Shown here one piece after another: positions 21,944 through 64,000 of a stretch of DNA of 64,000 nt. Origin of the DNA: Gammaproteobacteria bacterium (GTDB lineage Bacteria; Pseudomonadota; Gammaproteobacteria; UBA4575). Under the pieces are notes generated by a model, which was given only the letters and a program-made list of their open reading frames with translations, was not told where the DNA came from and made no database searches. Position 1 is the first letter of the stretch. The number at the start of each line of letters is the position of its first letter. The position numbers were made by a program, and so were the translations under genes. The DNA lies in the NCBI GenBank assembly GCA_965220875.1, contig OZ244849.1, forward strand, positions 1,466,401-1,530,400, in the 5' to 3' direction.

Positions 21944-22188
21944 ATAGCCTGTATAAGCTACTGATAATAAAGGGGAGCTTAGAATATGGATAGTTGTTTT
22001 GGTGCTTGTTCTGTCGGAACACGCTTTGAACCTTGGTAGACTTGCATCCTTTCAAATTGCTTCTCCGTTATCTTTAAAATGCGTACCTCCCCCTTCGGGG
22101 GGAGTATCTTTTTTCGCATTTGTACGCTTTTGGACTTGACAAGTTAGGGTAGTCCCTGTAGTCTATAATCATAGACAAGGGGGCTGAT

Positions 22189-24729: not shown

Positions 24730-24731
24730 CA

Positions 24732-24971
24732 CTAGTATAGTCCAAAAGCGTACAAATGCGTCTTTTTTATTCTTTTGCAGTGTACTTCTGCACTTTCATC
24801 ACTGGCACAGTGTCTAGTGTAAACGGAGTACTGCAGCATTACAAAGCCGTCCGTCATTAGTCTTTTGCGAAATCTACTGTACTGGTATCGGTCAGATTTG
24901 GTTTCGGTTGGGAGGTCAAAAAGAACCATAGTCCACAAACTTCGAAATCCTCCGAAAATGATTTCAGTCAT
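24732..24971 (-). CDS. cas2: Cas2, C-terminally truncated by the IS insertion (last 9 codons and stop supplied by the IS end)
   Basis: MVLFDLPTET...RFRKRLMTDGFVMLQYSVY matches type II Cas2; the reading frame continues across the empty site into a Cas2-like C-terminus ending at 21979. Confidence 0.75.
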   Translation of the reverse strand: MTEIIFGGFRSLWTMVLFDLPTETKSDRYQYSRFRKRLMTDGFVMLQYSVYTRHCASDESAEVHCKRIKKTHLYAFGLY

Positions 24972-29595: not shown

Positions 29596-29624
29596 TTTTT
29601 GAATTTAGGTACTAATATGTGGGG

Positions 29625-29732
29625 TACTAAATAGTGTATCTGAACTAAGCCTGCTCGTTTTTTACAACAAAATTCTAGCAGGATATGTCTTTTATGACTA
29701 AACCTTAACGCCTCTCAATGGGGCGTTTTTAG
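29625..29732 (+). ncRNA. Candidate tracrRNA (anti-repeat + intrinsic terminator), divergent from cas9
   Basis: 29633-29668 AGTGTATCTGAACTAAGCCTGCTCGTTTTTTACAAC is complementary over about 30 of 36 positions (including G-U pairs) to the CRISPR repeat; hairpin CGCCTC-TCAAT-GGGGCG followed by TTTTT at 29709-29730. Confidence 0.6.
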
Positions 29733-30979
29733 TTTTAGGCAACTTGAATTTTAGAGGCCACCCTTTTTGGTACCGCATTGAGTACGAATCTGGCGGACTA
29801 TGCAGCCTTCAATGCCACATAATTACTGGACGTGATTATCCCCTGAAAACAAGTACAACTGTATTATGTGATTTTGCGATCATCCGAGGATAGCCGATGA
29901 CAGCGAGTTTCGCACCTACTTCTGTATTGAACAAGTACTGTGATTTGTGGGTCACTTGTAATCCTGCGCGTGGTGAGTAAGTCTATACTCAGTATGGGTG
30001 TTATGAGCATGATTCCCTGTTCATGCAAGCCCTAGGTAAAAAGGCACCCGAAAATACATTTTCATTCCTTGGGATACAGGCCATCGCTACTGGATAGTAG
30101 AGGCCAAGTCTACCTATCGTAGCTTTTCTCTAAGCCTTGGGAGAGGCACAAGACTACTCTGACAAAGTGAATCAACTTGGAGTTGGGCTCAGCAAGATTT
30201 GCCACTGAAATTGCAGGCACGATCAGTCTTTTTATGTAACTATTGCTTATTGGAATGGTAAAGAATGGCTTGAAGTTGCCATCAATAATTACGAAACCAC
30301 AGGCTTTCATACTCTAGACCAGTGCCTGAACATTCTGGACAGGAACAGCAACATTCTACCTCTTTTCGATGATGAGCCAGACAGGTTCTTGCGTAATGTA
30401 AACGCTATAAATCAGACCTTGCATGACAATGAAGTGCCAGCAAGAACAGGGCAAGCGTTATGGCAGCTCTATTGCTAGCAGTAGTGCAAGACGGGAAATT
30501 TACGTATCCATGCTAAGCTTAAGATTACTAATTCCGTAGTCAAATCAGGTGTACAGGCAGCTTGAATTGTCAGCCACTCTGCTGCTTGTATTGATCACTT
30601 CCTTACCGTCTTGGGCTGAAACTCTAAGGGATTTGCCCGAGTTAATACTCGTCTGATACGGCGGAAAATACTGGACTGTACATGTCCTGAGAGGACAGTA
30701 GTGGCTATCGCACCCAGACTGGCAAACGCCCTATTGCATCAACACAGAAGGCTGTTGCCATTGCTTCAGACCGAAATGATGAACGGGGCTCTTATTTCTT
30801 TTGATCACCTAGCAGGACTCACCGCTAAAGGTGGTGAATATGTGCGGAATCCTAAGAGCTTGCTTTGGTCTAAAGCGTTGCGAGAACTGAGAGATCAAGG
30901 CATTAGTAGTAACGACAGCAACGTTGATTGAGTATATCCCTGTCTTGATTTCTAAACTCTTAGACGTCAAATAAAAATT

Positions 30980-31432
30980 TTGGAACCTTTAGATATAATC
31001 CCCTTTGAAAACAACAAAGGAGTAACAAAAATAATGATAGCTAACTGGAAAAATGTACTGCTGCGAAAAATGGTTTTGCAGATATGCTCAATTTACGGAG
31101 ACGGCCATGCGTTCCTTGGTGAGAGCTTCTGTGAAGATGAGTTCGGAATGGTGAAGTCACAGACAGGCAGGGAGGGGATAGACGGGTATATTCGGCATTT
31201 GGCAGTTCAGGTAAAGCTTAAGTGGGTTACTCAAGAAAACCTGTCCAGTCGGTATGTCACCATAAAACCTGATGCGGGCTTTGACGTATTGATTGTCTGT
31301 AAAAACGGCGCCGAGGGCGATGTAGAGTTGTTTGGTGCATGGGAAAAGCAACAAGTAGAAGCTGTCAGAAAGCCTAATACCAACAGGATAAACCTCAAGG
31401 ACCTCGCACAGCTTAATTGCTTTCAGTTATAG
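30980..31432 (+). CDS. Hypothetical protein, PD-(D/E)xK-like (paralog of 40957-41376)
   Basis: 150 aa; GESFCEDEFGMVKSQTG...DGYIRHLAVQVKLKW...DVLIVCKNG motif block shared with the 40957 ORF. Confidence 0.5.
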   Translation: MEPLDIIPFENNKGVTKIMIANWKNVLLRKMVLQICSIYGDGHAFLGESFCEDEFGMVKSQTGREGIDGYIRHLAVQVKLKWVTQENLSSRYVTIKPDAGFDVLIVCKNGAEGDVELFGAWEKQQVEAVRKPNTNRINLKDLAQLNCFQL

Positions 31433-31471
31433 GATTCGCCATGAAAGATAATTCATATCCTCTGTACATTG

Positions 31472-31798
31472 CTAAGCGTCGCTTTGATGCGTTATTTGAG
31501 GCAATGGTCGTCCGAGGCCGGTCACCAGATCGTCGAAAATCGAACCCGGCTGTTCGCGACGGTTGTAGCGGTAGTTGAACTCTTTCATGTGCTTCCAAAG
31601 GTGCTGCTTCGAAACGTGTACATGCGTCCCCCGAATTGAAAACTTTAAACGCGACCAGAAAGTTTCAATCGAATTAACATGAACATCACTCCTTGCAATA
31701 CATGCATGGTTAAGTGGTGATAGGTGTTCTGAGCTGTACTGTAGCGGTTTGTCCGATGACGATGAAATCACCGCCGAGTATTGCCGGACCATGCACAC
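31472..31798 (-). pseudogene. IS1595-family transposase C-terminal fragment
   Basis: HVNSIETFWSRLKFSIRGTHVHVSK...YRYNRR matches the transposase C-terminus; the N-terminal half is missing where high-GC DNA begins. Confidence 0.7.
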
Positions 31799-31969
31799 AA
31801 TGGACAGGGCCTGTGTGCTAGTCTAAATCTGGTTGTTTATCCATTGAGGTTTGACAGGTGAGACCGTAGACTTTGTCATGACTTGCTCGCATGCCAGCCT
31901 GTGTAGAAGGTTATCGCGTTCATGCATCTGGCACGAGCTACATCATCCCAGTACTTTTCGGGAAAGCCG

Positions 31970-33151
31970 ATGCTGACATTTACAGAGGAACTCTTGCTCA
32001 TGCTGGGGGATGAGGAGGGCCTGTTTCTTCCCGTCAAGGAACATGCCTTTGAATGTGCACTGGCCGGTGCCATCCTGATGGATCTTGCCTTCGCATTTCG
32101 TATTGACACAGACCTGCAGGCACTCGTGGTCACCGACCCCACCCCTACGGGCAATCCCATGCTCGATTATGTGCTGGCAAAGATTGTTGCCCGCACGGAC
32201 ATTACAGACACCCCGACCTGGATCCGGGTCTTGGCCACCGAGGATGCCGCAGTGATTCGTGAGCAGGCCCTGGATGGCCTAGTGGGGCACCGCATCCTGA
32301 AAAGGCAGCACAACCGCTTTCTGGGGGTGTTTCGCTCCACCTGCTATCCCACCCTGGATGACCGGCCCGTGCAGGCGATCAAGTCACGCATCGAGGCAGT
32401 CGTCTCCGATGACATTCCGGACCCGCGGGACGTGGCCCTGATCTCCCTGGTGGACGCCTGCCAGATTCTCCCTGACCTGTTTCCCAAGTGGGAGGCGGAA
32501 CGCACCAACTCCCGGCTTGATCTGTTGCGCAGGATGGACCTGATCGGTCGCGAGCTCACCGGCACCATCACCGAAATCCAGAGCCGGATCATCCGTGCGG
32601 CACGCGCCCAGGCAGAACGCTTCAGGAAGACCCTACTAAGCCTGGCTGCGGTGGGCAGCGCGGCCACGATCGCAACCCTGCTGGTGCCGAGTATCGGGGT
32701 TCCGGACCGCTGGGGTCCTTCGCTCCCCGGGCTGCTCTGGTTCGACGGGTTCTGGAAGCAGTTCAGCGGCTACCTGCTGCTTGCACTCAGCATGGCCGGG
32801 CTGACAGTCGCGGTCACAATCAAGAAGCAGCTGCTGGCCTGGGTCTCGGGTTCACATCGCTGGAGGCTTTCCCACATCGTACTCGGCCTCGGCTGTGTAT
32901 TCATCCTCTTCATGCACACGGGATTTCGCCTGGGCAGCAATCTGAATGCCGCGCTGATGGGCAGTTACCTCACCGTGCTGCTGTCGGGCACGCTGGTCGG
33001 CGTGGTGGTCGGGGCAGCGCCGCGACTCAAGCAGATGGGCCTGCACAGGATCGGCCCGGCCCGGCGCACCCTGCTTTGGGTCCATGCCCTGGCGACTTGC
33101 CTGCTGCCGGCCCTGCTCATCGTTCACGTACTGTCCGTGTATCTCTACTAG
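31970..33151 (+). CDS. GPP34/GOLPH3-like domain protein with C-terminal multi-TM domain
   Basis: MLTFTEELLLMLGDEEG N-terminus resembles GPP34-family proteins; 4-5 C-terminal TM helices; about 65% GC. Confidence 0.5.
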   Translation: MLTFTEELLLMLGDEEGLFLPVKEHAFECALAGAILMDLAFAFRIDTDLQALVVTDPTPTGNPMLDYVLAKIVARTDITDTPTWIRVLATEDAAVIREQALDGLVGHRILKRQHNRFLGVFRSTCYPTLDDRPVQAIKSRIEAVVSDDIPDPRDVALISLVDACQILPDLFPKWEAERTNSRLDLLRRMDLIGRELTGTITEIQSRIIRAARAQAERFRKTLLSLAAVGSAATIATLLVPSIGVPDRWGPSLPGLLWFDGFWKQFSGYLLLALSMAGLTVAVTIKKQLLAWVSGSHRWRLSHIVLGLGCVFILFMHTGFRLGSNLNAALMGSYLTVLLSGTLVGVVVGAAPRLKQMGLHRIGPARRTLLWVHALATCLLPALLIVHVLSVYLY

Positions 33152-33161
33152 GAAGCATCGC

Positions 33162-34634
33162 ATGGTTCGCAGGCTCATGCAGGCTGTGCTGGTGATGACC
33201 CTGCTGGGTGCCGCGTACGTGATCGTGACGATGACTATCGCCGGAGACCGGCGCCTGCTGCTGAGCGGCCAGACCACCGGTGCCCACCACCAGCTGGAGA
33301 TGGCTTGCGAGACCTGTCATGGCAACTCCGCATTCGCCGGCGAGCAGGCTGCAGTAAAGGTGCTGAACCGGAATTGCAGGAAGTGCCACGAGGATGAACT
33401 GAAGGTGGCCAAGGACAGCCACTCGCGCAAGCGCTTTCGCAACCCGCGCATGGCGGAGTACTGGGGTATTCTCGATGCGCGGCGTTGCACTACCTGTCAT
33501 ATCGAGCACCGCCCGGAGATCACGCGAGCCAGTGCAGTCACGGTCCCGATGGACTTTTGCGTGGCCTGCCACTCGCAAGGCGAGCAGGACATCCGAACGA
33601 CCCGCGCCAGTCATGCCGGGCTGGACTTTGCCACCTGCGCATCGGCAGGTTGTCACAACTTCCACGACAACCGTGCACTCTTCGAGGACTTCCTGCTTGC
33701 TCATGCCGGCCAGTCCGAGCCTGAACGACCCGTTGTGCATGGGTTGTCTGCACGTTACTTAGCCCGGCCAGTGTCGGTCGACGAGGCCCTGGGACGAGGG
33801 GATGCCATTGCACCGCCTGCAGCACTTGCCGAACCGGGCGCACTGGATCACTGGGTGGATTCCGGCCATGCTCAGGCCGGGATCAACTGCACGAGCTGTC
33901 ATGTGCCCAAGCCTGTCAGGGATGCGCTGAACGTCGAGGCGTTGACACACTGGATCGATGTGCCGGAGACGGGGGTGTGCATGGAGTGCCACAAGCCGCA
34001 GGCTCGTACGTTTGTCCGGGGGCGCCACGGCATGCGCCAGCATCCCCGCATCGCAAAACCCAGGGATGCGGGCCGGGGGCTCACCCGGGTCGTACCTGCA
34101 TGGATGAGTCGCTGGCTCAACGACCCGGCCCTGCCCGTTGTGATGACCGTGGGTGAGGCGCGCCTGCCGATGCGCGCCGATGCAGACCCCTCCACGACAC
34201 TCAATTGCAGTACCTGTCACCGCGCACATGCCCTCGATACGGTACGTGCAGCGGCGGAGGCCTGTGCCTCCTGTCACGATGATGCGCATACTCGCAACTA
34301 TTTTGAAAGCCCACACTATGTGCTGTGGCAGCTGGAGCAGGTAGGCGGGGCACCGCCCGGTAGTGGTGTCAGTTGTGCAAGCTGTCACATGCCGAAGCTC
34401 GAACACCGCAGGCAGGTGCTTACCACCCACAACCAGAATGACAACCTGCGGCCCAACGAAAAAATGATACGGTCAGTTTGCCTGGACTGTCACAGCCTCG
34501 GCTTCTCACTGAATGCACTTGCCGATGTCGAACTCATCCGGCAGAACTTTACAGGCAAACCCAAGGTCCACGTACAAAGCATCGACTGGGCCATTGCACG
34601 CAGCCTGTCAAAGCCCGGTACGCCGGAGGACTGA
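33162..34634 (+). CDS. Multiheme cytochrome c (at least 10 CxxCH motifs)
   Basis: CETCH, CRKCH, CTTCH, CVACH, CTSCH, CMECH, CSTCH, CASCH x2, CLDCH plus CASAGCH; N-terminal TM anchor; RBS GGAAG upstream. Confidence 0.8.
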   Translation: MVRRLMQAVLVMTLLGAAYVIVTMTIAGDRRLLLSGQTTGAHHQLEMACETCHGNSAFAGEQAAVKVLNRNCRKCHEDELKVAKDSHSRKRFRNPRMAEYWGILDARRCTTCHIEHRPEITRASAVTVPMDFCVACHSQGEQDIRTTRASHAGLDFATCASAGCHNFHDNRALFEDFLLAHAGQSEPERPVVHGLSARYLARPVSVDEALGRGDAIAPPAALAEPGALDHWVDSGHAQAGINCTSCHVPKPVRDALNVEALTHWIDVPETGVCMECHKPQARTFVRGRHGMRQHPRIAKPRDAGRGLTRVVPAWMSRWLNDPALPVVMTVGEARLPMRADADPSTTLNCSTCHRAHALDTVRAAAEACASCHDDAHTRNYFESPHYVLWQLEQVGGAPPGSGVSCASCHMPKLEHRRQVLTTHNQNDNLRPNEKMIRSVCLDCHSLGFSLNALADVELIRQNFTGKPKVHVQSIDWAIARSLSKPGTPED

Positions 34635-35545: not shown

Positions 35546-38500
35546 ATGAGGAGGTTTCCAGCAGTCCGACATTATTGCTGTAAAACACACTTTTTTGAGG
35601 TGTATACCTGGAAGGGTTTGTGTGTCCTGACGGTTCTTGGCCTAGCTACCCTGTCCATGGCCGGTAGCGATGCCTTTGCGGCTGCCGTGTGCAGCAACAC
35701 ACCTGGCGCAGGGAATCATATTCAATGTGAAGAACCAGCAACATCGACCAGCGATATAGATATTGATGCGGTGGGTGTCGATATCGACTTGACTGGGAGT
35801 GGCGTCTCCACTGCGGGGGTGCAAGCTGTGCATACAGGCAGCGGGGATGTGGATATCAGCATCAGCGGTGCGACAACCAACATGATGACCACTCCATCAA
35901 TGATCGACACGACAGGAAGCAATACTTTCGGTGTCCGTGGCACGCTGGTCGGCGAAGGCACCCTCACTTTCTCACTGGAAGATACCGAAATCCGAACACA
36001 GGGTACTGGCTCCATAGGACTGGGGGCCCGGCATATGGGCAACGGCCATCTCAAAGTGGACTTGAGGAACGGTGTCGTGATCGATACCCAGGGAGGCGGC
36101 AGCGCAATCGGTGTCAGGATGGTGCAGCAGAATACCGCTGCAAACCAAATGAACGACGTCACCTTTCTGGCCGAGGAAATTTCCGTTACTACTGCAGGGA
36201 GCCGAGGGTACGGCCTTTTTGCCACTCGAGAGGGCGGTCCCGGCAATATCCACATGACGGTCAGGGACAGTACGGTCATGACCCAAGGTAACATGGGGTT
36301 AGGCGTATTTGGCCAGCATTCCGGTACAGGCGACACAACGATCACCCTGGTCTGTACGGACTCCCCTGCAGTTCGCTGTGAGATCACGACCCCGGGGACC
36401 CAGGGACACGGCGTGCAAAGCTGGCATCATGCTAGCTCCAGCGGCGACATCCGGATCAAGGTACAGGGCAACTACGACATCCGAGCGGGGAGCACAGCTA
36501 CCAACAACGCCTACGGCATATACGGGCTGCATCAGGGTACCGGAAATATCGATATCGACCTGCAGGGCGGTGCCATCACCACCACCGGGGCTTCTTCCCA
36601 CGGCATTCATGGGTGAAAATTCACAGGAGCCCGGGGCAATGTCGACATCGACGTGCAGGGTGGTTCCATCACCACGGCAGGAACAGCTGCCCACGGCGCC
36701 TATGGGGCGCACCAGGGTACCGGAAATATCGATATCGACCTGCAGGGCGGTGCCATCACCACGGCAGGAACCACTTCCTACGGCGTCTACGGCTTGCATA
36801 CTGGATCCGGCAACATCAACCTCGCTACGGAAGGCGGTCATGGAGTTACCACACAAGGCTCCAATGGGCACGGCATCGTGGCCCTTCATTTGGGGAGAGC
36901 GACATCGGGACGCAATATCGACATCACGGTGGGCAGTCCGACCCGGCTGGGTGGTTTTATCAGGACAAGCGGCACAGGTGCCCGGGGTGTGCATGTAGGT
37001 GGCCTCAGCAATGGCGCACCGATCCGCGTGGCGGCCCGCGGTGCCGATGGCTTTTTGCAGCAGACGGTGCGGGTCAACCGGTCGATCACCAGCGCGGCCG
37101 AGGGGGTGTACCTGGCCGGGGGCGGCAAGGTCATCATCGGCCCTTCGGGCAGCATCGACTCGGACCTGGACATCGCCATCCTGGCCACCGGCACGGTCCC
37201 GGAAGATACCAGTGACATGAACAACGTGATCCCGGCTATCCCGCCCAAGCTGAGGGTGGACCTGAACCCCAGCGGGCAGCGCATGACAGGAGAGGACGGC
37301 TGGCTGGCCCAGGCCCTGGGCGGGGGCTGGATTCTCAACGAAGGTGGCGAGACCACGATTGCGGTCCACAATGTGGTGCTGCATGAGGGGGCGACGGGCG
37401 TCGTCCCCGGTGCGGTGGCCCGCAACGGTGCCTGGAACGTCACGATGCTGTCGGATGGGGTGACGGTGGCCCGCAGCACGGACCCGTTCACCGCCAGCAT
37501 GCGCACCGCAAATGTCTTCGCCGATCGCGATTTCTCTGAAGATGACTTCATGGAGCAGGTGCTCGCCTGCCTGGCAGGCCAGACCGGAACGCCCCCCAAC
37601 TGCATGGACCCTGATCCAGAACCCGATCCTGATCCTGAACCCGAACCAGAGCCCATGCCAGAACCCGATCCTGATCCTGAACCCGATCCTGATCCTGAAC
37701 CCGAACCAGAGCCCATGCCAGAACCCGATCCTGATCCTGAACCCGATCCTGATCCTGAACCCGAACCAGAGCCCATGCCAGAACCCGATCCTGATCCTGA
37801 ACCCGAACCAGAGCCTTCTGGCTCGGTGCTGATGGAGGACTATGCACCCCGTGCCGCCCTCTACGAGGCCCTGCCGAGCTTCCTGCTCGGCCTGCATACC
37901 GACCGCTGGCCGGGCCACCCCCCCTCGGCACCTGTCTGGATGGCCCTGTCAGGGACTACAGGAGACCAGGACTTTGATAACTCTACCGTAGACGTAGAGT
38001 TCGATACCGAACACCAGGTTTTTCAACTGGGGACTACCTTTGTACAGGACCCGCACTGGACCCTGCAGGCCACCCTGCACCATGTATCCGGTTCTGCGGA
38101 TGTCTCTTCTCCCGTACAGGGCGGAGACATTGATGCCGAAGGCCAAGGGATATCCCTTGCAACCCAATGGACCCGTGGTGGAGGTACCTATGCGAGGGGG
38201 AGGGTCGCCTGGACTGAATATGAGCTGGACATTGACTCCGAGGAAGTCGGGCGTCTGGTCTCTTCGCTGGATGCCGAGCGTCTTGCGATACAGCTTGAGG
38301 CTGGCCATCGGATGCCTTGGGGCGCCCGGGTTCACTGGACCCCGCATATCCGTCTTTCGCATACCCAAGTATCCATTGACCGCTTTACCGACCGTGTCGG
38401 GGCTCGGGTATCCTTTTCGGATGAGGAGCGTTCCAGTGCAGCCCTTGGCATCATGACCGATACCACGCGAAGTGCAGGGGGCGGTGAGCTTTCAATACGG

Positions 38501-38722
38501 GGGGCACTGCACCTGAAACATTACATCAGTGGTACGGACACCACCGCAAAGGTCTCCGGGATGAACCTTCGAGCCCGCACGCAGGACAATGAGGTGCTGC
38601 TGGACCTGGGGGCCAGGTGGCAGAAGGATCCGTGGATACTGGATGCAGCACTGTCTGTCCAGGAGGCAGGTTCCGGGAATCATGCGTACTCAGGTTCAAT
38701 CCATATCGGGATGCAGTTCTAG
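35546..38722 (+). pseudogene. Autotransporter (type Va) with repetitive passenger, interrupted by an in-frame TGA at 36614-36616
   Basis: Signal peptide; [18 protein letters not shown]-type passenger repeats continue in the same frame across the TGA; C-terminal beta-barrel ending ...IHIGMQF. Confidence 0.7.
37609..37815 (+). repeat. Three perfect 60-bp tandem repeats (37621-37800) encoding a [14 protein letters not shown] linker
   Basis: Sequence lines 37621, 37681 and 37741 are identical 60-mers. Confidence 0.95.
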
Positions 38723-51700: not shown

Positions 51701-51777
51701 TGGTCGGAGTGAGAGGATTTGAACCTCCGACCACCGCAACCCCATTGCGGTGCTCTACCAAGCTGCGCTATTCCCCG
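51701..51777 (-). tRNA. tRNA-Pro (anticodon GGG) with two mismatches at the base of the acceptor stem
   Basis: Reverse complement CGGGGAAUAGCGCAGCUUGGUAGAGCACCGCAAUGGGGUUGCGGUGGUCGGAGGUUCAAAUCCUCUCACUCCGACCA has the general tRNA-Pro cloverleaf layout; anticodon loop AUGGGGU; positions 6-7 do not pair with 66-67. Confidence 0.6.
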
Positions 51778-56190: not shown

Positions 56191-56853
56191 ATGTCTAATA
56201 TGCAAACTCTCACAACAAAACAACAACGTATATTTCAGTGGATCAACGATGAACTTGAGCTCCCGGTTTATGCCGATGTATTTAAAAGTGCTGTCTTTAG
56301 TTTAAACCTGAAATCCTTTGGGTATATAACGTTCGTGGCTCATGCGGGCAGAGATATCATGAACGGCCTAGCCCACGAGTACAAAGGAGGGCAGCGAAAG
56401 CAGGTTGACTATACGAAAGATGCGGACAGCCTTGCAGAAGTTTGGAATGGCAAGTGGGGAGGGTCAGCCGGGTCTCTTGATAGCAAAGAACCTCTCGCTT
56501 GGGAAATACCTAATGAGGTATGCAAAAAGGTAAAGGCACTGATTGATAACCACAAAGCTGAGCGAAAAAGAAGTGAATTTACTGATCGGCTCTTCTTTGC
56601 CACGTTTCTCGATTATGATGATATTGAAAATATCCCAAAGAATTATGAAGCGGAGTGGAAGAAGACGAAACAGTGGTTCCTGAAACATATACATATTCGG
56701 AGAGACGAGTATAAGCCAGAAGTGAAAGAGGAGATTGTCAAGCATTTTCAAATTTTAGAGACATATCTTTATACTGCTGCCTTGCAGCCGATTCGAGCAA
56801 ATACAAGAACTAGATGGAATCCTGGAACAAGCCAACAGATGACGAGGTACTAA
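56191..56853 (+). CDS. Hypothetical protein
   Basis: 220 aa ORF, low GC. Confidence 0.45.
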   Translation: MSNMQTLTTKQQRIFQWINDELELPVYADVFKSAVFSLNLKSFGYITFVAHAGRDIMNGLAHEYKGGQRKQVDYTKDADSLAEVWNGKWGGSAGSLDSKEPLAWEIPNEVCKKVKALIDNHKAERKRSEFTDRLFFATFLDYDDIENIPKNYEAEWKKTKQWFLKHIHIRRDEYKPEVKEEIVKHFQILETYLYTAALQPIRANTRTRWNPGTSQQMTRY

Positions 56854-57719
56854 AAGCTCTTGAATCCATAAAAACGGACAAGAGCCGCCAGTATTTCTTT
56901 TCAAAACTAAAGAATCCACTCTGGATCAAGCCGCTTGAGGAAAAAGGATTCTTCAGAAATCCTCCTGTGCCCCAGAAAACGCCGGATGGATACATCCACC
57001 CGTTTGGGCCTGAACTTCAATATCTGAAGAATGTTGCCGGTGAAGATCCAGATCAAGTGGTAAGTGTTGTTTCTGGCATTGATTTAACGGATAACCTTCG
57101 ACTGATCCAGGATGTAATCGATATTGTGCTCAATGTCGAAGCATCGATTTCAACCCAGCTCAAATCCAAAATAATTGATTACGTTCGGTGTCAAAGTTTT
57201 ATCACAATCTTCCATTTGGACGATGTGCTTCGTCATTGGGCTGATGATGGCCAAACTGAACCAGCCTTGGAGCTGGCTGCAGCACTTATTAGATTTAAAG
57301 CAGATCCGCAGGCCGGTCGTCCACAACCACTCTTCAGGACATGGGAGTACCAGGAGATCTTGGAAAAGGGTGTTCAAGCTTTGGCGGACTCTGAGCCGTA
57401 TCAAACTGCTCGAGTACTGATTAAAGCCGTAGGAAATATGATTTACCAAAGGTTTGATCAAACCCAGCTTGAAAGGCTTGGAGAAAGAGATTATTCAAAT
57501 GCTTGGTGTGTACGCGTATTTGAAACAGACAAGGAATATAAAAGTTCAGATGAATGTCTTGTTCATGCGTTAACCCATGCCTGTGAAAGGGTATTTGAGA
57601 AAACACCGGAGTTGGCATCTAAGCTGGAAAAAATATTAAGAGACCAGCGGTGGCACATCTTCACACGCATTCGCCACCATCTTTTCTCACTGCATCCAAA
57701 CAAAGAAACTGAACCCTGA
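56814..57719 (+). CDS. Hypothetical protein
   Basis: 301 aa ORF overlapping the upstream gene by 40 nt. Confidence 0.45.
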   Translation: MESWNKPTDDEVLKALESIKTDKSRQYFFSKLKNPLWIKPLEEKGFFRNPPVPQKTPDGYIHPFGPELQYLKNVAGEDPDQVVSVVSGIDLTDNLRLIQDVIDIVLNVEASISTQLKSKIIDYVRCQSFITIFHLDDVLRHWADDGQTEPALELAAALIRFKADPQAGRPQPLFRTWEYQEILEKGVQALADSEPYQTARVLIKAVGNMIYQRFDQTQLERLGERDYSNAWCVRVFETDKEYKSSDECLVHALTHACERVFEKTPELASKLEKILRDQRWHIFTRIRHHLFSLHPNKETEP

Positions 57720-57728
57720 ATTCGGGAG

Positions 57729-58700
57729 ATGATTCTCTCACATGAAGATTACAGTAAGTGGCCGTACCACTTTGAGTTTCAACGCATGACCTGCTCTTCA
57801 TGTGAAGCGTTTGGTGAAGATTTTCTCACTGTCGATGACAGAGAAAGGATATTTGAAGCTATTTTGAGCGGACCCTCCAAGCAGGATTTCCAGGAGCAGG
57901 CTGGGGACAAATTTACTGAAGAACTTTTCGAGGGTAGAAAATCCCGTTTCCACACGATGCAGCTAAGACCATTTGGTTCTGTGCTTTTTGGGAAATATCT
58001 GGACTACTTCCAGGAATTGGAAAACAAGAGCCGCGAAACAATCAAGGACATTGACTACCCACCTTACATGCCTGAAGGCTTTGTCCGGGTAGGGGAGTGT
58101 AGTCCAAAGTCAAACGAGGAATTGAAGCAGATGAAAGACGGGGAGATTCTTTCATACATCAATAACTGGCAAGATGCTCATTATGACTCTGAAACATTTT
58201 CAAGACATATAAGTATTTCAGGGTTTGCCGACGAATTTCAATCAGTCTTTAAAGAAGCGATTATCCCTGACAGTGAACGTCTGCGTTTCTGGGTCGCGAA
58301 CAGGAGCAAAATCAAAAGACCTATTTATATTCAGGCAATAATTTCTGCTATACGCAAAGATGTAGAACTAAAAAATTTTGAAGAGCTCAGCTGTTGGTTC
58401 AAGCTCTGTGAGTGGGTTCTACGTCATCAAGATCACCTAAGGGAAGAAGGTACCGATTATAGTGATGAGTCGGTAGAGAACCCGGGTTGGAACAGTTCAA
58501 GACGAGCAGTGGGCGATTTTATCGAAAGCTGCCTGAAGGATGGGGTCGATGTCCCTCTCTGTGCCCGCGAAGACATCGCCGCTTTATTGGACATGCTTTG
58601 CACTCAATATGATTGGCGGCTGGATGAGAACAAGCCTGTATTTCAGGATTTGGATGAACCGCTTACCGAGGAAATTAATGGGGATTATATACCTAAGTAA
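57729..58700 (+). CDS. Hypothetical protein
   Basis: 323 aa ORF, same strand, 9-bp spacing from the previous ORF. Confidence 0.45.
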   Translation: MILSHEDYSKWPYHFEFQRMTCSSCEAFGEDFLTVDDRERIFEAILSGPSKQDFQEQAGDKFTEELFEGRKSRFHTMQLRPFGSVLFGKYLDYFQELENKSRETIKDIDYPPYMPEGFVRVGECSPKSNEELKQMKDGEILSYINNWQDAHYDSETFSRHISISGFADEFQSVFKEAIIPDSERLRFWVANRSKIKRPIYIQAIISAIRKDVELKNFEELSCWFKLCEWVLRHQDHLREEGTDYSDESVENPGWNSSRRAVGDFIESCLKDGVDVPLCAREDIAALLDMLCTQYDWRLDENKPVFQDLDEPLTEEINGDYIPK

Positions 58701-58830: not shown

Positions 58831-59718
58831 ATGAAGGCTATGGACATGTTTCCAGATGATGAAACAGCCAGAAAGTAGTTTGAAGAAACTCGATGGCCTG
58901 ACGGAAATGTGCATTGTCATAAGTGCGGTTCTACCAATGTACAGTGTGGAACCAAGCATCCTACCATGACGCACAGATGCAGGGATTGTGGCAAGTTCTT
59001 TTCTGTGAAGTCTGGAACTGTAATGCAAGGTTCCAAGTTAGGTTATCGTGTTTGGGCCATTGCCATATTCCTGCTGACTACCAACCTCAAGAGTGTATCC
59101 AGTTTGAAGCTGCATCGTGATCTGGACATTACCCAAAAAACAGCTTGGCACCTTGCACACAGACTTAGGAAAGGCTGGCAGAGTGGACAAGGTTCATTTT
59201 CTGGTCCTGTGGAATTTGATGAAGCCTATATCGGAGGCAAGGAGCGAAACAAGCATGCAAACAAGAAGCTGAGGGCTAGCAGAGGTGGAGTCGGCAAGTC
59301 AGTTGTTGTGGGCATCAAGGACAGGGAAACCAACAAGATCAGCGCAAGACTGGTAGGCGACACGACTATGGAAACACTACATGACTTTGTGCTGAGTCAC
59401 ACTTGCGTCAATGCTTCCATCTACACGGATGACCATCGCTCTTATCAAGGCTTGCCGAATCACGAAGTGGTTAAGCATTCGGTCAGTGAGTATGTACGGG
59501 ATCAGGCGCATGTGAACGGGATTGAATCCTTCTGGGCACTGCTGAAAAGAGGCTATCACGGCACATTTCATCACATGTCAGAAAAGCACCTGGACAGATA
59601 CGTTGGTGAGTTCTCAGGTCGGTATAACCAAAGGGACTACGACACCATTGATCAGATGAAGTTGATCGTCAGAGGCCTTGAAGGAAAAAGCCTCAAGTAT
59701 CGGGAACTGGTGAACTAA
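58831..59718 (+). pseudogene. IS1595-family transposase with an in-frame TAG at codon 16 (58876-58878); otherwise intact
   Basis: MKAMDMFPDDETARK-TAG-FEETRWPDGNVHCHKCGS zinc ribbon ... EFDEAYIGGK ... HVNGIESFWALLKRGYHGTFHH; GTG at 58909 could re-initiate. Confidence 0.75.
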
Positions 59719-60184: not shown

Positions 60185-60812
60185 ATGAACAGGTTAATAC
60201 TTTTTCTCGTATTACTGCTCAGTACAGGGGTAAGTGCAGAAATCGATCTCACAAAGCCATCCTATAACTATGTCAGTCTGGAGTATGAAGTCGCCGATGA
60301 CCATGATGGGTCAAACGCAGTAACTTACGGATTCTGTTTCGAACCTGTAAAAGACCATGACTGGTTTCATATCTTCGGAGGTTGGCAGGAAGGAAACCTT
60401 GACCTTTCAATGGGCGTCAGGGCAAAGCGTGAAGGTTATCTTGTTGGCGGCGGGTTCAAGCACTACCTGAATGAGCGCAGCACAGTCCACGCCAGAATAG
60501 GTTACGTGGATTCAACGACAAGGATAAGAGGGGTTAGGATTCCCACACCTGGGGGGGGGGGTGATTGAACTGCCTACCTTGAGTGTTTCAGCTGTAGGTA
60601 AATATATTGAACTGGGAGCCAGAACTGTTCTGAAACCCAAATGGGAACTGATCAGTTTTGCCAGCTATGTAGACGCTGGCGGGTTCATCCGGCGATTTAT
60701 CTGGACGACACTGGAATATCGTGTTCTGGATAACCTTGGGCTTAACATTAGTGCAAGGGTTCAAGATGGAGAAGGCGATGCTGTGATCTATGCCATGAGA
60801 TATCATTTTTAA
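60185..60812 (+). CDS. Small outer-membrane beta-barrel protein, out of frame at an 11-G homopolymer (phase OFF as sequenced)
   Basis: Signal peptide MNRLILFLVLLLSTGVSA; ORFs 60185-60568 and 60561-60812 join into one about 209-aa protein ending ...YAMRYHF if the G tract were 10 nt. Confidence 0.65.
60551..60561 (+). repeat. Poly-G homopolymer (11 G) within the OMP coding sequence
   Basis: Seen directly. Confidence 0.9.
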
Positions 60813-61033
60813 CAGTGATTGGAGGCAAGATGTGAAAAAGAAAAGAATCATCAAACTGAAACACCTCAGCTACCAGCCGAAAAAGGCCGAGTTGGAAAAG
60901 AAAATTAGGATCAAGGCAACACCAGAGGAATTTGCGAAAGCCTTGATGCAGGATGTTGAAATCAAGTACGAGGAATGAGGGGTGGTTCGTTACTTAGGTA
61001 TATAATCCCCCAATTAATAATACAAGAAGCCGG

Positions 61034-61735
61034 GTGCTGGAAAGCTTGGTCAAGTTTGGTTATTGGGTACGTAACAAAACTAAAAACCAACAGGCAGAAA
61101 CACCAGAAGTTTTTGACATTCTGAACAAAAGGCTTGCTCCAGCATCTGACTACCCACTGACCGTGCCTGAATATGCCATCCTTGGGAGATGGTTTGGCCA
61201 TATATGGGAATTGGATCAAAATTGGACGACAGAGCATAAAAAATATTTTTCCCCACAGCAGACTATGCAGGCCTGAAAGGCAGCTTTCGAAAATTACTTG
61301 AGGTGCTTTCATCCCCGTGAACCAATCTTTGATACAGTAAAAAGTGAGTTTGTATTTGCACTTAAGAATCTCGGTAAATTTGAAGTGGGTCACGACCAAA
61401 GAGACGAACTGAAGAACTCCTTAAGCAAACACTTATTTTCATATTATCTTTGGGAAGCATACCCGCTGAAAGGGAGCAGTAGCTTGCTGGAGAAATTTTA
61501 CGAAAGTACTGAGGAAAACAAGACTCACTGGGCTGATTTGTTTGGTCATGTGGGCCGTATATTGAAAAACAACGAACAACTGGATAGTGGTATTAAGCAA
61601 AGAATCATCGAGTACTTTGATTGGCGCCTGGAAAAGAAAGATAAATCCGAGCTTAAAGAATTTACTTTTTGGCTTGAAGCTAGGTGCCTTGAAAATTTGA
61701 TTGGGTTCAGGGATGTAACAGCGATCCAACGATAA
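61034..61735 (+). CDS. Hypothetical protein; two same-frame ORFs separated by a TGA at 61274-61276
   Basis: ORFs 61034-61276 and 61298-61735 share a frame. Confidence 0.3.
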
Positions 61736-62016
61736 CGATGATTTGGGCAACTCTATAGATTGCTTACATGACGTCACTGGGTATGATAGGAATAAACAAT
61801 GGGAAAAAACATTGAGTTATGTTATTGCGCGCCCGCTGGATAAGTCATATAATATGGCAATAAGCTATTCGTGTTAGAGAATGCGAGAGCTGACTCCTAA
61901 TACAAGCCCATAAGGAAGAAGTACAGGTTCATAAGGAAGGAGGCAGAAATGGCTACAAAAAATCCATCATCACCCAGAAAGAAACCTTCCAAATCCAAGG
62001 CTCAGGCGCTTCTTCG

Positions 62017-63540
62017 TTGACAGCTGAAGAAAAGCTGGCCAGGAGGAAGCTGAGTGCGCTTCAGCGCGGAATACATCGAATCGGTGCGGAGGACACTACT
62101 CCATGCTCGGTTTCAGTGGTGGGGATAGGCAAAACAGGCGCAGACGTCATTGCACAGATTTTAAGAGAGAAAGCAGAACGTCAGGTCGAATCCGACAGTG
62201 CCCCGTTGAATGTGCTCGCCGTGGACATTGGTGACCAGGATCTCCATCAGCTACGTGAACTTGCTGACAAGCTGCCCGGGGATGCTGCAAATGTTGAAAC
62301 GGTGGCGCTTGAAGTCCCTGAGCGGGATGAACTTTTCAACAGTTTGCGCAGAATGCGTGAATTTCTAAAACTCGAATATCCCCGATACTACTGGAATCCA
62401 AACTACGAGCCCTGGCTGCCTTCCGGCATCAGCTTGTCCAAGGAAGGGGAACACTTTCAGCGTTCGGTATCAAAAGCCATTTATGCAAAAAGCTACTATG
62501 ACGGCACACGTCCGATGCGTGATGCGATGAAGCGTTTTGCCGAGAATGTCGACAATCTGCCAGGCCAATCCGTGGTGGCTGTAGTGTTCGGTCTCGGCGG
62601 CGGTACGGGCAGCGGGATCATGGTCGACATGGCACGTCATCTTTCGAATGTCTGCTTTGGCAGGCGTGCACTGGTGGTTGGCGTTGCAATTTTGCCCTGC
62701 GAAGGCGATGATGAAGCCCATCGAGGCAGTCATTTGTTCCCTGCCTTGAATGAGCTGGACTGCATGGGCGATGAGGAAAAGAACAAGGGTGTGGTGTCCG
62801 TCTGGGGTGACCTGTACCGGAATCCGTTTACGGGTGGTGTGATTGTCGTTCCTCAGAAGGCGGTTTGGGAGACAACTCGTGACTTGGAAGAAACCCATGC
62901 GCGAATGGACCGGGAAATTTCGGCATTTTTGACACACAACAATGGTATAGATCTTTGGGAAACACTCAGGATGCTGAACTGGGTAGGCGCTCCACCAACA
63001 CAGCATGCTGCGGCTCGAACTCCATATGGCAACCGGTGGGCGCATGTACTGGGATTTGCTGATACCGAGGGGGACCTGCAGGCGAGTGATGATATGGCCG
63101 GTCGCCTGGGAATTCGCGACACGTATAAGCCGGAGTTCTTGGAAGTACGGGCGGCTGACCCGGAAGATGATAGGGCTTCCAAGGCTGCCCAGGCTTTAGG
63201 CAAGTCGTTTTCGCCGGTGGCAGAACCCGCGATTGCTGCTTCGGCCGGACTGGGCCCGACGTCCATGCAGTTCGTCCTGCCCTGCATAAACAAGTTGGAT
63301 TTTGATTTGTTTTTCGAATCGCGCCAGGCCTATGACCAGAACGAGTGGGAACAGAAGCTGGCATGTCATGCGTGGCTGGTGGACTTGGGCGTCATGCTTT
63401 GCGAGCCGGCTATCCGGTTTAACGGCATGGCGGGAGAATGCCTGTGGGGTTGCGCCTGCTGGGTGGTCGTACCCTATGACCAGATTCGCGGACCGGATCT
63501 TGAACAAAATGTAAAAACCGCAGCAGCTGAGGCAGGCTAA
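62017..63540 (+). CDS. Tubulin/FtsZ-superfamily GTPase (divergent; GGGTGSG signature)
   Basis: 507 aa; VVGIGKTGADVIAQI glycine-rich N-terminal loop; VVFGLGGGTGSGIMVD matches the tubulin T4 signature [SAG]GGTG[SA]G. Confidence 0.6.
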   Translation: MTAEEKLARRKLSALQRGIHRIGAEDTTPCSVSVVGIGKTGADVIAQILREKAERQVESDSAPLNVLAVDIGDQDLHQLRELADKLPGDAANVETVALEVPERDELFNSLRRMREFLKLEYPRYYWNPNYEPWLPSGISLSKEGEHFQRSVSKAIYAKSYYDGTRPMRDAMKRFAENVDNLPGQSVVAVVFGLGGGTGSGIMVDMARHLSNVCFGRRALVVGVAILPCEGDDEAHRGSHLFPALNELDCMGDEEKNKGVVSVWGDLYRNPFTGGVIVVPQKAVWETTRDLEETHARMDREISAFLTHNNGIDLWETLRMLNWVGAPPTQHAAARTPYGNRWAHVLGFADTEGDLQASDDMAGRLGIRDTYKPEFLEVRAADPEDDRASKAAQALGKSFSPVAEPAIAASAGLGPTSMQFVLPCINKLDFDLFFESRQAYDQNEWEQKLACHAWLVDLGVMLCEPAIRFNGMAGECLWGCACWVVVPYDQIRGPDLEQNVKTAAAEAG

Positions 63541-63584
63541 CAGGTGCCATCAGCGAAAGCGCTTGTAAAAAGGTTACTAGAGCG

Positions 63585-63911
63585 ATGCCACTAGATTGGG
63601 CACTAGTGAAAAAGAGATACAAAGACGGGATGGAGGTGCCTACCGTTGCGGGAGGCAAGACCCTGACCGTTACGGGGTGTGATGACGAGGCGATTTATAT
63701 AGAGAATCCGATTTGGAAGGCACAGTTGAGCAGAAATAATCTTGAGGAAGGAGTCAGGCTGATTGAAGAAGGTGTGATTGATAAAGACCCCGGATTATTC
63801 GTAGAAGATTACCGGGTCTACGTAACAGATGAACGCTCAACGTCAGCTGCGCATATTCTATACGATTTGGGTTTTCTTGATGAAGACACGGGCTTTACAC
63901 CAAGATGCTGA
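63585..63911 (+). CDS. Hypothetical protein
   Basis: 108 aa ORF downstream of the tubulin-like gene. Confidence 0.35.
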   Translation: MPLDWALVKKRYKDGMEVPTVAGGKTLTVTGCDDEAIYIENPIWKAQLSRNNLEEGVRLIEEGVIDKDPGLFVEDYRVYVTDERSTSAAHILYDLGFLDEDTGFTPRC

Positions 63912-64000
63912 ATCTTGCTCATTTTCGACGTAAGGCATTCAGTAGTTTCCAAAAATTGCTTAATCCGATTTTAAGCATACAAAATGTTTGCTAAAAAGCA

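Follow-up and report, generated by a model that had tools for sequence, protein, structure and literature searches.

Near its 3′ end, the forward strand of the window (the whole 64,000-nucleotide stretch of DNA that was analysed) carries a TTG-start open reading frame of 507 codons, as given by the open reading frame listing and its translation, followed by a small gene encoding an acidic protein of 108 amino acids and 12.2 kDa (Table 1). Translation also places a 23-codon frame, MATKNPSSPRKKPSKSKAQALLR and its stop codon, directly ahead of the TTG start. The initial annotation had treated this basic 23-residue peptide as an open reading frame in its own right; comparison with relatives showed it instead to be the N-terminus of the longer gene. 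The homologue P0001, which is 95% identical to the window protein, is 530 amino acids long with the N-terminus MATKNPSPPSKGPSKSKASGTSSLTAEEK, and nucleotide alignment with the nearest relative, L003, revealed that one T is missing from the window at approximately position 62001 (AAGGCTTCAGG in L003, AAGGC-TCAGG in the window). Because of these two observations, the true gene, as judged by these sequences, is 61949..63540, which would encode 530 amino acids if repaired and which is split in the window by a one-nucleotide frameshift. The missing T may reflect a mistake in the assembly or a genuine mutation. Programmed frameshifting at 62001 was rejected on inspection, there being no slippery site and a simple extra T in L003. 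The end coordinate originally given for the 23-residue frame was one base short.

The stop codon of the short frame (TGA, 62018-62020) overlaps the TTG start at 62017, and if translation restarts at this TTG, the frameshift would cost only a lineage-specific N-terminal tail, which begins at 61949 and is basic and rich in Lys, Ser, Pro, Ala and Thr (N-termini of P0001-P0005 and P0018 compared). A strong Shine-Dalgarno sequence, GGAGG (61939-61943), can be read ahead of the ATG at 61949; it lies on the second copy of a 21-nt tandem duplication of the leader (TACAAGCCCATAAGGAAGAAG and TACAGGTTCATAAGGAAGGAG) found by repeat search, of which the L003 leader has a single copy, as indicated by overlapping HSPs. 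An adaptor gene or centromere repeats had been proposed as something to look for nearby; the only repeat in 60800-62100 was this two-copy duplication, and the neighbouring genes had no matches to DNA-binding domains. Promoters, terminators and centromere-like repeats near the gene did not exceed chance, and Rfam detected no riboswitch or other RNA near the gene in the window or in the related loci L001 and L002. In L002, a cobalamin riboswitch precedes cbiMNQO only.

The product of the small downstream gene is 93% and 69% identical to that of the gene following the tubulin-like gene in L001 and L002, respectively. Positions 61685-64000 of the window align with 9690-11984 of L003 at 93.4% nucleotide identity, and the second tubulin-like gene (B gene) of L003 starts at 11994; by synteny, the corresponding anhB-like paralogue is expected to start at approximately 64010, about 10 nt past the end of the window, and the operon would run off the window end. 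Upstream of 61685 the window no longer matches its relative and contains IS1595 and DNA of low GC content, in place of a region that holds a UrtA-like ABC transporter in L003; the conjugation genes TraC and TraG and IS elements lie upstream. Synteny begins only at 61685, and the upstream mobile DNA is therefore a separate insertion. The initial annotation had placed the gene among hypothetical genes in an accessory region, which is correct for the DNA upstream of 61685 but not downstream, where a conserved operon partner is found. Relatives bear the gene on chromosomes of 2-6 Mb, and the closest relatives of the host include sponge symbionts. PADLOC returned no defence-system match for the gene or its partner; weak Dsr1 matches correspond to separate upstream open reading frames.

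Table 1 Features at the anhA-like locus, with the evidence for each
Feature	Position	Strand	Basis
21-nt tandem duplication of the leader	61901..61942	+	Repeat search, comparison with L003
True 5′ end of the anhA-like gene, out of frame in the window	61949..62020	+	Translation, homologue N-termini, alignment with L003
Main body of the anhA-like gene, tubulin/FtsZ fold	62017..63540	+	Pfam, homologues, conservation, fold, identity to RHA1
anhE-like gene, predicted cobalt metallochaperone partner	63585..63911	+	Identity to relatives and RHA1, survey of loci
Intergenic spacer ahead of the predicted anhB-like paralogue	63912..64000	+	Synteny with L003

The gene encodes a protein of the tubulin/FtsZ fold

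Membership of the tubulin/FtsZ superfamily, as first proposed, was upheld by Pfam, with the window protein scoring above the curated cut-offs of both Tubulin_2 (E=1.5e-11, 44.6 bits, cut-off 27) and Tubulin PF00091 (E=2.6e-8, 34.8 bits, cut-off 33). The 507-residue frame and the two glycine-rich loops described with it are present: VVGIGKTGADV lies at residues 34-44, with the T1-like GIGKTGAD at 36-43, and VVFGLGGGTGSGIMVD at residues 189-204, with the T4 loop GGGTGSG at 194-200. The predicted model superposes on tubulins over approximately 290-330 residues, the C-terminal domain included, and comprises a Rossmann-like GTPase domain, helix H7 and a C-terminal activation domain, the C-terminal part being mixed alpha/beta. 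The gene really does encode a tubulin/FtsZ-fold protein. A plain sequence search of the PDB gave only marginal matches to CetZ, FtsZ and tubulin (E of at least 0.036), and the family profile gave zero matches there.

Conservation analysis was applied to the family, for which 838 homologues of the window protein were found. The claim that GGGTGSG marks the tubulin form of the loop did not survive, as the same motif occurs in CetZ and its first positions vary within the family (ADGTGSG, GDSVGNG, AGGVGSG and others); T4 is moderately conserved overall, and only its ...GxG end and the glycines of T1 are near-invariant in these two loops. A T7-like DLWE with the invariant E315 lies at the expected T7 position, as mapped by inspection. 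The most invariant segments of the family, ahead of the GTPase loops, are a family-specific insert at residues 117-135 (LKLEYPRYYWNPNYEPWLP), with its near-invariant YYWNPNYEPW element, and a C-terminal segment at residues 470-487 (GMAGECLWGCACWVVVPY), in which C475, C479 and C481 form a Cys-x3-Cys-x-Cys motif (CLWGCAC).

The gene belongs to a conserved metabolic operon

A survey of 78 related loci from Gammaproteobacteria, Alphaproteobacteria, Cyanobacteria, Actinomycetes and Paenibacillus showed that the tubulin-like gene is followed by an AnhE-like gene of approximately 100 codons in all but one (77/78), and then nearly always by a tubulin-like paralogue; pairs of tubulin-like paralogues occur in 67 loci and sets of three in seven. 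The usual companions encode a GTPase of the COG0523/CobW group, cobalt transporters, and either a formamidase or an aliphatic amidase. When counts were restricted to loci spanning 15 kb or more (n = 53), 43 had an amidase and 41 had CobW or a cobalt transporter, both being missing from only three; about 10 of the 53 have the operon with no amidase within 10 kb. The amidases are equivalog-level matches to AmiE (710 bits, cut-off 427) and FmdA (692 bits, cut-off 500). A plasmid locus of Brucella anthropi adds an AmiC-like binder, an ANTAR (AmiR-like) regulator, CbtA/CbtB and a MoxR/VWA pair. The VWA partner in such loci resembles NorD/CbbO and comes with a CbbQ/NorQ ATPase. Pairing of CbbQ/NorQ with NorD/CbbO is known for metalloenzyme maturation. 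The gene context is metabolic, not cytoskeletal; the amidase, CobW and cobalt-transporter context comes from the relatives, the window itself showing the A and E genes only.

Relationship to the acetonitrile hydratase of Rhodococcus jostii RHA1

The window protein is 44% identical over 95% coverage (E=4e-150, 427 bits) to WP_011600030.1/ABH00363.1, encoded on pRHL2 of R. jostii RHA1. It is closer to this A protein than to the RHA1 B paralogue (34% identity, 82 gaps, 275 bits), to which the B gene product of L003 corresponds (48% identity to the 568-residue RHA1 protein). Along its entire length, the small downstream product shows 42% identity to the RHA1 protein of 99 amino acids (E=7e-33). 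Gene order at the pRHL2 locus is MarR, AmiC-like binder, aliphatic amidase, the genes for the proteins of 514, 99 and 568 amino acids (computed masses of 55.8, 11.09 and 63.0 kDa), HTH and Ni/Co transporter. AnhA, AnhE and AnhB have reportedly been described from R. jostii RHA1; AnhE is said to have a mass of 11.1 kDa, in agreement with the 11.09 kDa computed for the 99-residue product, and the acetonitrile hydratase (ANHase) is said to have no significant identity to known nitrile hydratases (NHases). RHA1_ro10170, ro10171 and ro10172 (ABH00363-5) fit anhA, anhE and anhB in organism, unique gene order, and cobalt and amidase context. None of the public databases and sources names the proteins of these three genes Anh, a literature search for the locus tags ro10169-ro10172 gave zero matches, and in the searchable literature no paper ties ANHase or nitrile hydratase to the tubulin superfamily. 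No solved structures were found for AnhA, AnhB or AnhE.

The RHA1 ANHase is a cobalt-containing NHase that acts on small aliphatic nitriles; its gene order, alpha-AnhE-beta, is unique, and AnhE is a cobalt metallochaperone required for the enzyme (PMC3511329, PMC3680314, PMC7193024). According to secondary literature, the purified enzyme has AnhA as its alpha and AnhB as its beta subunit (PMC3511329, PMC7193024, PMC3680314); its metal content is one Co, two Cu and one Zn (PMC3766881). The nitriles used by RHA1 are acetonitrile, acrylonitrile, propionitrile and butyronitrile (PMC6941271). RHA1 has exactly one plasmid-borne amidase, and one paper's table gives it one NHase, with location unstated. 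RHA1 AnhA keeps both the insert and the Cys motif, and RHA1 AnhB has neither, a distribution which fits the reported single Co per enzyme. A link to the orphan nitrile hydratase of an Aplysina sponge (PMC3766881; subunits of 26 and 72 kDa) was considered and rejected, its five de-novo peptides being unmatched in the window and 80 loci.

Discussion

The gene most probably encodes the alpha subunit, AnhA, of a nitrile hydratase of the cobalt-dependent ANHase type (probability approximately 0.8), on account of the orthology with RHA1, the gene order, the amidase and cobalt context, and the pattern of conservation. Since identity to the characterised RHA1 enzyme is 44%, the RHA1 substrate range may not be transferable to the window organism, and the window gene, being frameshifted, could be inactive. 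In the proposed mechanism, AnhA and its AnhB paralogue, both of the tubulin/FtsZ fold, would assemble into a heteromeric enzyme for nitrile hydration (R-CN + H2O -> R-CONH2), with the AnhE-like protein, encoded between A and B, delivering cobalt during maturation. Metal would be supplied, as the related loci suggest, by a COG0523/CobW GTPase, by CbtA/CbtB, CbiMNQO or NiCoT importers and sometimes by a MoxR/VWA pair; AmiE or FmdA would turn the amide into acid and ammonia, and UrtA/AmiC-like amide-binding proteins would serve in transport or regulation. The predicted catalytic metal site would comprise the YYWNPNYEPW insert together with the Cys-x3-Cys-x-Cys motif of the C-terminal segment, the latter reminiscent of the Cys-x2-Cys-x-Cys cobalt 'claw' of classical NHases. 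By analogy, A and B may pair like the alpha/beta-tubulin dimer, and a nucleotide, if AnhA binds one, would probably be structural or regulatory. A bolder version is tentative and, in our estimate, unlikely: AnhA/AnhB would be the first catalytic, non-cytomotive tubulin/FtsZ branch, a heterodimeric metalloenzyme in which GTP is bound and hydrolysed across the A-B interface, via the pocket and the T7-like glutamate, so as to control, with AnhE and CobW, the insertion of cobalt or to power filament assembly, its cobalt 'claw' having converged with that of classical NHases.

Four alternatives were weighed against the AnhA reading. The best placed, although improbable, is a decaying pseudogene, in which an operon broken by the neighbouring insertion and the frameshift would be nonfunctional. 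The deletion relative to L003 is what such decay would leave, as is the replacement of the upstream synteny, including the UrtA-like ABC transporter, by IS1595 and low-GC DNA. However, the 507-codon frame is intact and 97% identical at the protein level to its counterpart in the relative, the anhE-like gene downstream is also intact, and the lost tail is wholly missing from cyanobacterial and actinobacterial orthologues anyway; the TTGA stop/start overlap permits reinitiation, and single-base indels are frequent assembly errors.

Another role, in place of nitrile hydration itself, would be GTP-dependent scaffolding or maturation of some other operon enzyme, such as delivery of cobalt or another metal to the amidase. 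It would account for the retained nucleotide-binding fold and for co-occurrence with the metallochaperone-type CobW, with MoxR/VWA and with the AnhE-like protein, and no enzyme of the operon but the amidase carries a database name. Amidases of the AmiE type, however, are Cys-Glu-Lys hydrolases that work without metal, and in about 10/53 of the longer loci the operon has no amidase within 10 kb. Secondary literature has AnhA and AnhB as enzyme subunits and AnhE as the chaperone, and the near-invariant Cys motif and insert resemble an active site more than a chaperone surface, which together make this alternative quite improbable.

The chances are slimmer again for a non-catalytic, membrane-remodelling homologue of the FtsZl1 type (Makarova and Koonin 2010), which would act at the membrane with VWA proteins and GTPases. 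The RHA1 orthologues ro10170 and ro10172 do appear in the FtsZl1 list (Additional file 1 of that study), the Tubulin_2 model matched by the window protein was built around the FtsZl1 group, and some loci hold a MoxR/VWA pair and a G3E GTPase. The VWA partner, however, is of the NorD/CbbO type, with the CbbQ/NorQ ATPase of a metalloenzyme-maturation pairing. FtsZl1 hallmarks (a size of approximately 1000 amino acids, a coiled-coil C-terminus, OmpA or membrane-protein neighbours, an unrecognisable T6-H7 region) are missing, the model aligns with tubulins into the C-terminal domain, and membrane remodelling was itself only a context-based prediction.

Least probable of all is the suggestion of the initial annotation, a TubZ/PhuZ-like segregation filament, which as a cytomotive polymer would move plasmid, phage or ICE DNA by GTP-dependent assembly, via an adaptor on centromere repeats: the fold with intact T1/T4-type glycine loops, TraC, TraG and IS elements upstream, and the fact that all superfamily members characterised earlier form filaments (Makarova and Koonin) are outweighed by a non-significant match to TubZ/PhuZ (PHROG PhuZ E=0.34), by the lack of an iteron array or TubR-like gene nearby, by mobile DNA that was inserted separately beyond the limit of synteny, by a chromosomal operon in relatives that stands beside amidase, CobW and cobalt genes, by partners that are a tubulin-like paralogue and an acidic protein of 11-12 kDa, not a DNA-binding protein, and by RHA1 orthologues that probably correspond to subunits of a purified enzyme.

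To enzymology, ANHase is a cobalt nitrile hydratase "with no similarity to known NHases", its structure unsolved; to the cytoskeleton field and the databases, the same proteins are "tubulin-like" or "FtsZl1" hypothetical proteins, and these two lines of work seem never to have met. If the AnhA reading is true, a heteromeric metalloenzyme has been built from the tubulin/FtsZ fold, hundreds of genes called "tubulin-like" in cyanobacteria, sponge symbionts, actinomycetes and rhizobia need re-annotation as subunits of nitrile or related C-N hydratases, and genome scans should avoid reading such genes as cytoskeletal or partition elements. It would also suggest that sponge-symbiont-related Gammaproteobacteria scavenge nitrogen from nitriles or amides, and provide a second scaffold, evolved independently, for nitrile hydration of industrial relevance.

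Comparison with known systems

The locus differs from TubZ/PhuZ systems in having no adaptor, centromere, or plasmid or phage partition context and no significant profile match. With the heterodimeric tubulins (alpha/beta-tubulin, BtubA/BtubB, Asgard AtubA/B) and CetZ/FtsZ, the protein shares the glycine-rich T1 and T4 loops and the invariant acidic residue of the T7-like DLWE, and, as in btubA/btubB, paralogous genes stand side by side; unlike these, the AnhA-like family has a similarity below the detection limit of plain searches, approximately 180 family-specific residues, a T4 that is only moderately conserved, and a metabolic operon. The FtsZl1/Tubulin_2 proteins are linked to it by the Tubulin_2 match and by the listing of the RHA1 orthologues (Makarova and Koonin 2010), whereas the window protein is about half as big (507-530 amino acids), has no coiled coil and a recognisable C-terminal tubulin-type domain, and belongs to a different, tightly conserved neighbourhood, and its RHA1-type subgroup probably has a documented enzymatic function.

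Classical NHases would share the reaction, as judged from the RHA1 enzyme, and cobalt dependence, together with two subunits, a dedicated small activator, a nearby amidase and a three-cysteine motif ending in Cys-x-Cys, the Cys-x3-Cys-x-Cys found here being analogous to C(T/S)LCSC. The window protein, in contrast, has no Pfam NHase match even at E<=1 and an unrelated (tubulin/FtsZ) fold; ANHase subunits are paralogues of 56-63 kDa rather than unrelated chains of approximately 23-26 kDa, and additional Cu and Zn are reported in the RHA1 enzyme.

In comparison with the RHA1 ANHase itself, the window host is a sponge-symbiont-related Gammaproteobacterium, with a chromosomal gene in place of one on a linear plasmid and with an extra basic N-terminal tail; the B subunit of its lineage retains the Cys motif and insert that RHA1 AnhB lacks, and cobalt is handled through CobW and CbtA/CbtB-type genes rather than NiCoT. 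The two systems are alike in full-length homology of all three proteins (A 44%, E 42% and, via the nearest relative, B 48%), in the large-small-large gene order, in having an aliphatic amidase, an amide-binding protein and a cobalt or nickel transporter as companions, and in the near-invariant insert and Cys motif of the A subunit.

Tubulin/FtsZ fold of the window protein

The 507-codon ORF of the initial annotation is present, carrying VVGIGKTGADV at residues 34-44 and VVFGLGGGTGSGIMVD at residues 189-204, and its placement in the tubulin/FtsZ superfamily was borne out by two Pfam profiles scoring above their cut-offs, Tubulin_2 (E=1.5e-11, 44.6 bits, cut-off 27) and Tubulin PF00091 (E=2.6e-8, 34.8 bits, cut-off 33). 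That the protein belongs to the superfamily, its C-terminal activation domain included, is well supported because the AlphaFold2 model built from a 40-sequence family alignment was confident (mean pLDDT 88.2, pTM 0.91) and the best 50 Foldseek PDB matches were all FtsZ, CetZ, alpha/beta/gamma-tubulin, OdinTubulin, BtubA or TubZ, each with a probability of 1.00. At the sequence level the family is isolated: phmmer against the PDB returned only E-values of at least 0.059, the family profile had no PDB match, and 1.84 billion representatives, exhaustively scanned, yielded only 164 clusters at E<=1e-3. The GGGTGSG motif had been read as diagnostic of tubulin; it is present, but is also carried by CetZ and so lacks that meaning, and within the family the loop differs in its first positions. 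Proteins of ~875-916 aa (P0186, P0189, P0205, P0209 and similar homologues) share only residues ~31-305 with the window protein (Tubulin_2, ~30% identity), have long, unrelated C-terminal regions, and may be true FtsZl1-type relatives.

A frameshift separates the N-terminal tail

The gene observation is real, but the boundaries given for it have to be revised. P0001, the closest homologue at 95% identity, has a length of 530 aa (507 + 23), and its N-terminus (MATKNPSPPSKGPSKSKASGTSSLTAEEK) is the 23-aa peptide joined to the main ORF. Nucleotide alignment with the nearest related locus, L003 (OZ242278.1, a gammaproteobacterial MAG chromosome of 2.1 Mb; identity to the window 97% for protein and 93% for nucleotides), showed that the window has lost one T at ~62001 (AAGGCTTCAGG to AAGGC-TCAGG). 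Given these two comparisons, the short basic ORF exists as annotated but is not a separate gene; it is evidently the gene's own basic N-terminal tail, severed by a 1-nt frameshift that either arose in the assembly or is a genuine mutation. Pseudogenisation is a possibility with weak support, and a functional core protein may be made despite the frameshift because the short ORF's stop codon overlaps the TTG start of the main ORF (TTGA). The tail is missing in cyanobacterial and actinobacterial orthologues; a basic tail of ~20-35 aa, rich in Lys, Ala, Ser, Thr and Pro, occurs only in the gammaproteobacterial MAG clade nearest the window (P0001-P0005, P0018, P0023, P0037). The leader (61901-61942) contains a 21-nt tandem duplication that includes the ribosome-binding region and is single-copy in L003.

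Probable orthology with the acetonitrile hydratase of Rhodococcus jostii RHA1

In PMC3511329, PMC3680314 and PMC7193024, the RHA1 acetonitrile hydratase (ANHase) is described as a cobalt nitrile hydratase (NHase) of small aliphatic nitriles, with structural genes in the unique order alpha, AnhE, beta, AnhE being a cobalt metallochaperone; PMC3766881 gives its metal content as 1 Co, 2 Cu and 1 Zn. Growth of RHA1 is supported by acetonitrile, acrylonitrile, propionitrile and butyronitrile (PMC6941271), and the strain has a single plasmid-borne amidase. A tblastn search of plasmids located a homologue of the window protein on RHA1 plasmid pRHL2 (44.5% identity, 95% coverage, E=1e-120), in the order MarR, substrate-binding protein, aliphatic amidase, "tubulin-like" 514 aa, hypothetical 99 aa, hypothetical 568 aa, HTH, nickel/cobalt transporter. 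The 514-, 99- and 568-aa proteins have calculated masses of 55.8, 11.09 and 63.0 kDa. AnhE is reportedly 11.1 kDa, and ANHase is said to share no significant identity with characterised NHases, both of which fit. The window protein scored 427 bits against RHA1 A and 275 bits, with 82 gaps, against RHA1 B, which assigns it as an A-type orthologue; the small ORF downstream is 42% identical to the 99-aa protein over its full length, and the B gene product of the nearest relative is 48% identical to the 568-aa protein. Through these orthologues, the window gene is identified, with a probability of roughly 0.8, as encoding the AnhA-type subunit of an ANHase-type nitrile hydratase, and it adds to an enzyme family that is known but has been poorly annotated.

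Operon context across relatives

A gammaproteobacterial and a cyanobacterial genome share the order tubulin-like gene, 108-aa gene, ~555-aa gene and CobW/COG0523 GTPase, with cobalt-transport genes nearby. The 108-aa gene is present in the window (93% and 69% identical to the two copies), and the ~555-aa protein, with a weak tubulin-like match (Tubulin E=1.4e-4), is, at 41% identity, clearly paralogous to the window protein. Scanning species-representative genomes yielded 78 loci, whose hosts are sponge-symbiont and other Gammaproteobacteria, Alphaproteobacteria, Cyanobacteria, many Actinomycetes, Paenibacillus and Caballeronia; tblastn placed the small gene in 77 of the 78, and while 67 loci carry two tubulin-like paralogues, 7 carry three. 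Of the 53 loci that span 15 kb or more, 43 have an amidase, 41 CobW or a cobalt transporter and 31 a UrtA/AmiC-like binding protein, amidase and cobalt genes both being missing in only 3. The amidases were recognised at equivalog level as aliphatic amidase AmiE (710 bits, cut-off 427) and formamidase FmdA (692 bits, cut-off 500). On a Brucella anthropi plasmid the order is AmiC-like binder, ANTAR regulator, GTPase, CbtB, CbtA, tubulin-like, 108 aa, 564 aa, MoxR ATPase, NorD-like VWA. Judged by gene content, these loci are organised as catabolic operons for nitriles or amides that include a cobalt-dependent enzyme, and not as cytoskeletal or partition modules.

In a supplementary table, Makarova and Koonin (2010) classed RHA1_ro10170 and ro10172, which flank a single pRHL2 gene, as "FtsZl1" hypothetical proteins; they proposed membrane remodelling for this family and noted that every characterised superfamily member forms filaments. 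Such a membrane role is less likely than a subunit of the hydratase, as is a pure chaperone role.

Some loci carry further genes. A third, shorter Tubulin_2 paralogue of ~420-463 aa (L003 16271-17533, L001 18632-20023; also L004, L005, L007 and L008) lies a few genes 3' of CobW, where a peroxiredoxin gene and a 2Fe-2S ferredoxin-like gene precede it; over the GTPase domain it shares 29% identity with the window protein, and it has no YYWNPNY insert. In some Alphaproteobacteria the B gene is immediately followed by genes for a CbbQ/NorQ-type MoxR ATPase and a NorD-like VWA protein (L083, Brucella anthropi p3; L077; L082, a Shinella plasmid), which suggests an extra maturation machine; in Shinella plasmids B is reduced to a C-terminal fragment and the pair is kept.

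Mobile DNA and other genes of the window

The plasmid or phage segregation filament suggested by the initial annotation is not supported: neither TubZ/PhuZ-specific similarity nor, at the locus, a DNA-binding adaptor gene, iterons or centromere repeats were found, relatives' copies are chromosomal and in a metabolic setting, and the mobile-looking upstream DNA (IS1595, Dsr1-like fragments; GC 44% versus 55% in the tubulin-like gene) stops at 61685, the point from which the window is syntenic with L003. An IS1595 transposase follows the Dsr1-like ORF pair, which looks like a split or truncated defence-sirtuin-like gene, and this ~7-kb stretch (44% GC versus 52% for the whole window) occupies the place of a UrtA-like ABC transporter upstream of the operon in L003. 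A large share of the window has the appearance of an integrated mobile element. The window's Cas1 and Cas9 genes form a type II CRISPR-Cas module; no array was found in 20000-32000 by a tandem-repeat finder, a tool unsuited to CRISPR arrays.

Features of the window
Feature	Coordinates	Strand	Details
TraC	3526-6225		conjugative-element gene
TraG N-terminal region	9415-10980		conjugative-element gene
IS1595 transposase	11539-12426		
N6/N4 DNA methylase	12414-14021		
N6/N4 DNA methylase	23092-24729		fused to inactive restriction-endonuclease domain
Cas1	24968-25930	-	Pfam Cas_Cas1, 6.6e-32
Cas9	25852-29595	-	1247 aa; RuvC_III, Cas9 alpha-helical lobe, HNH domains
Bacterial GPP34 (Golgi phosphoprotein 3-like) domain protein	31922-33151		
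Multihaem cytochrome c	33084-34634		
Autotransporter	36653-38722		
tRNA gene	51704-51777	-	
Dsr1-like ORF pair	56814-58700, 58909-59718		301 aa + 323 aa; PADLOC Dsr1 middle and C-terminal parts, 7e-8 and 3e-5
23-codon ORF	61949-62020		MATKNPSSPRKKPSKSKAQALLR, then stop; strong Shine-Dalgarno GGAGG at 61939-61943
Main ORF, anhA-like	62017-63540	+	TTG start, 507 aa
Small ORF, AnhE-like	63585-63911		108-aa gene

Proposed mechanism and comparison with known systems

Published accounts describe RHA1 ANHase as a cobalt-dependent A+B enzyme, matured by AnhE, that converts small nitriles to amides. The remaining roles are operon logic from gene content: metal would be supplied by cobalt import, CobW and AnhE, plus MoxR/VWA in some loci, the amide would be consumed by AmiE or FmdA, and amides would be bound by the UrtA/AmiC-like proteins. 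The two most invariant stretches of the family are an insert, LKLEYPRYYWNPNYEPWLP (residues 117-135), and a C-terminal motif, GMAGECLWGCACWVVVPY (residues 470-487; C475, C479 and C481), and the T4 loop is only moderately conserved; the active site may lie in these two family-specific additions to the tubulin fold. RHA1 AnhA keeps both and RHA1 AnhB has neither, a loss that would fit one cobalt per enzyme, whereas A and B alike carry them in the window's lineage and in most others. The 3' end of the A gene (63317-63491) shares 75% DNA identity with that of the L003 B gene (13408-13582), which reflects either an extremely conserved Cys-motif region or its gene conversion between the paralogues. 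It is plausible that a nucleotide is bound and that A and B meet at a tubulin-like interface, since the T1 glycines are invariant and an invariant Glu (E315, in a DLWE segment) lies where tubulins hold the T7 catalytic residue.

The ANHase enzyme is already known, and its tubulin homology is implicit in databases, where the RHA1 proteins are named "tubulin-like" or "hypothetical"; in a 2023 phylogeny, Tubulin_2 proteins serve solely as outgroup. No mention of ANHase together with tubulin was found in the searchable literature, and the connection appears not to have been drawn previously, at least in the open literature. The main interest of the gene is that it would reveal, within the tubulin/FtsZ superfamily, a catalytic branch seemingly unrecognised by either field. 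Classical NHases bind cobalt or iron at a Cys-x2-Cys-x-Cys site, which the Cys-x3-Cys-x-Cys motif of the window family resembles; as the window protein has no NHase Pfam match, this likeness would be a convergent solution.
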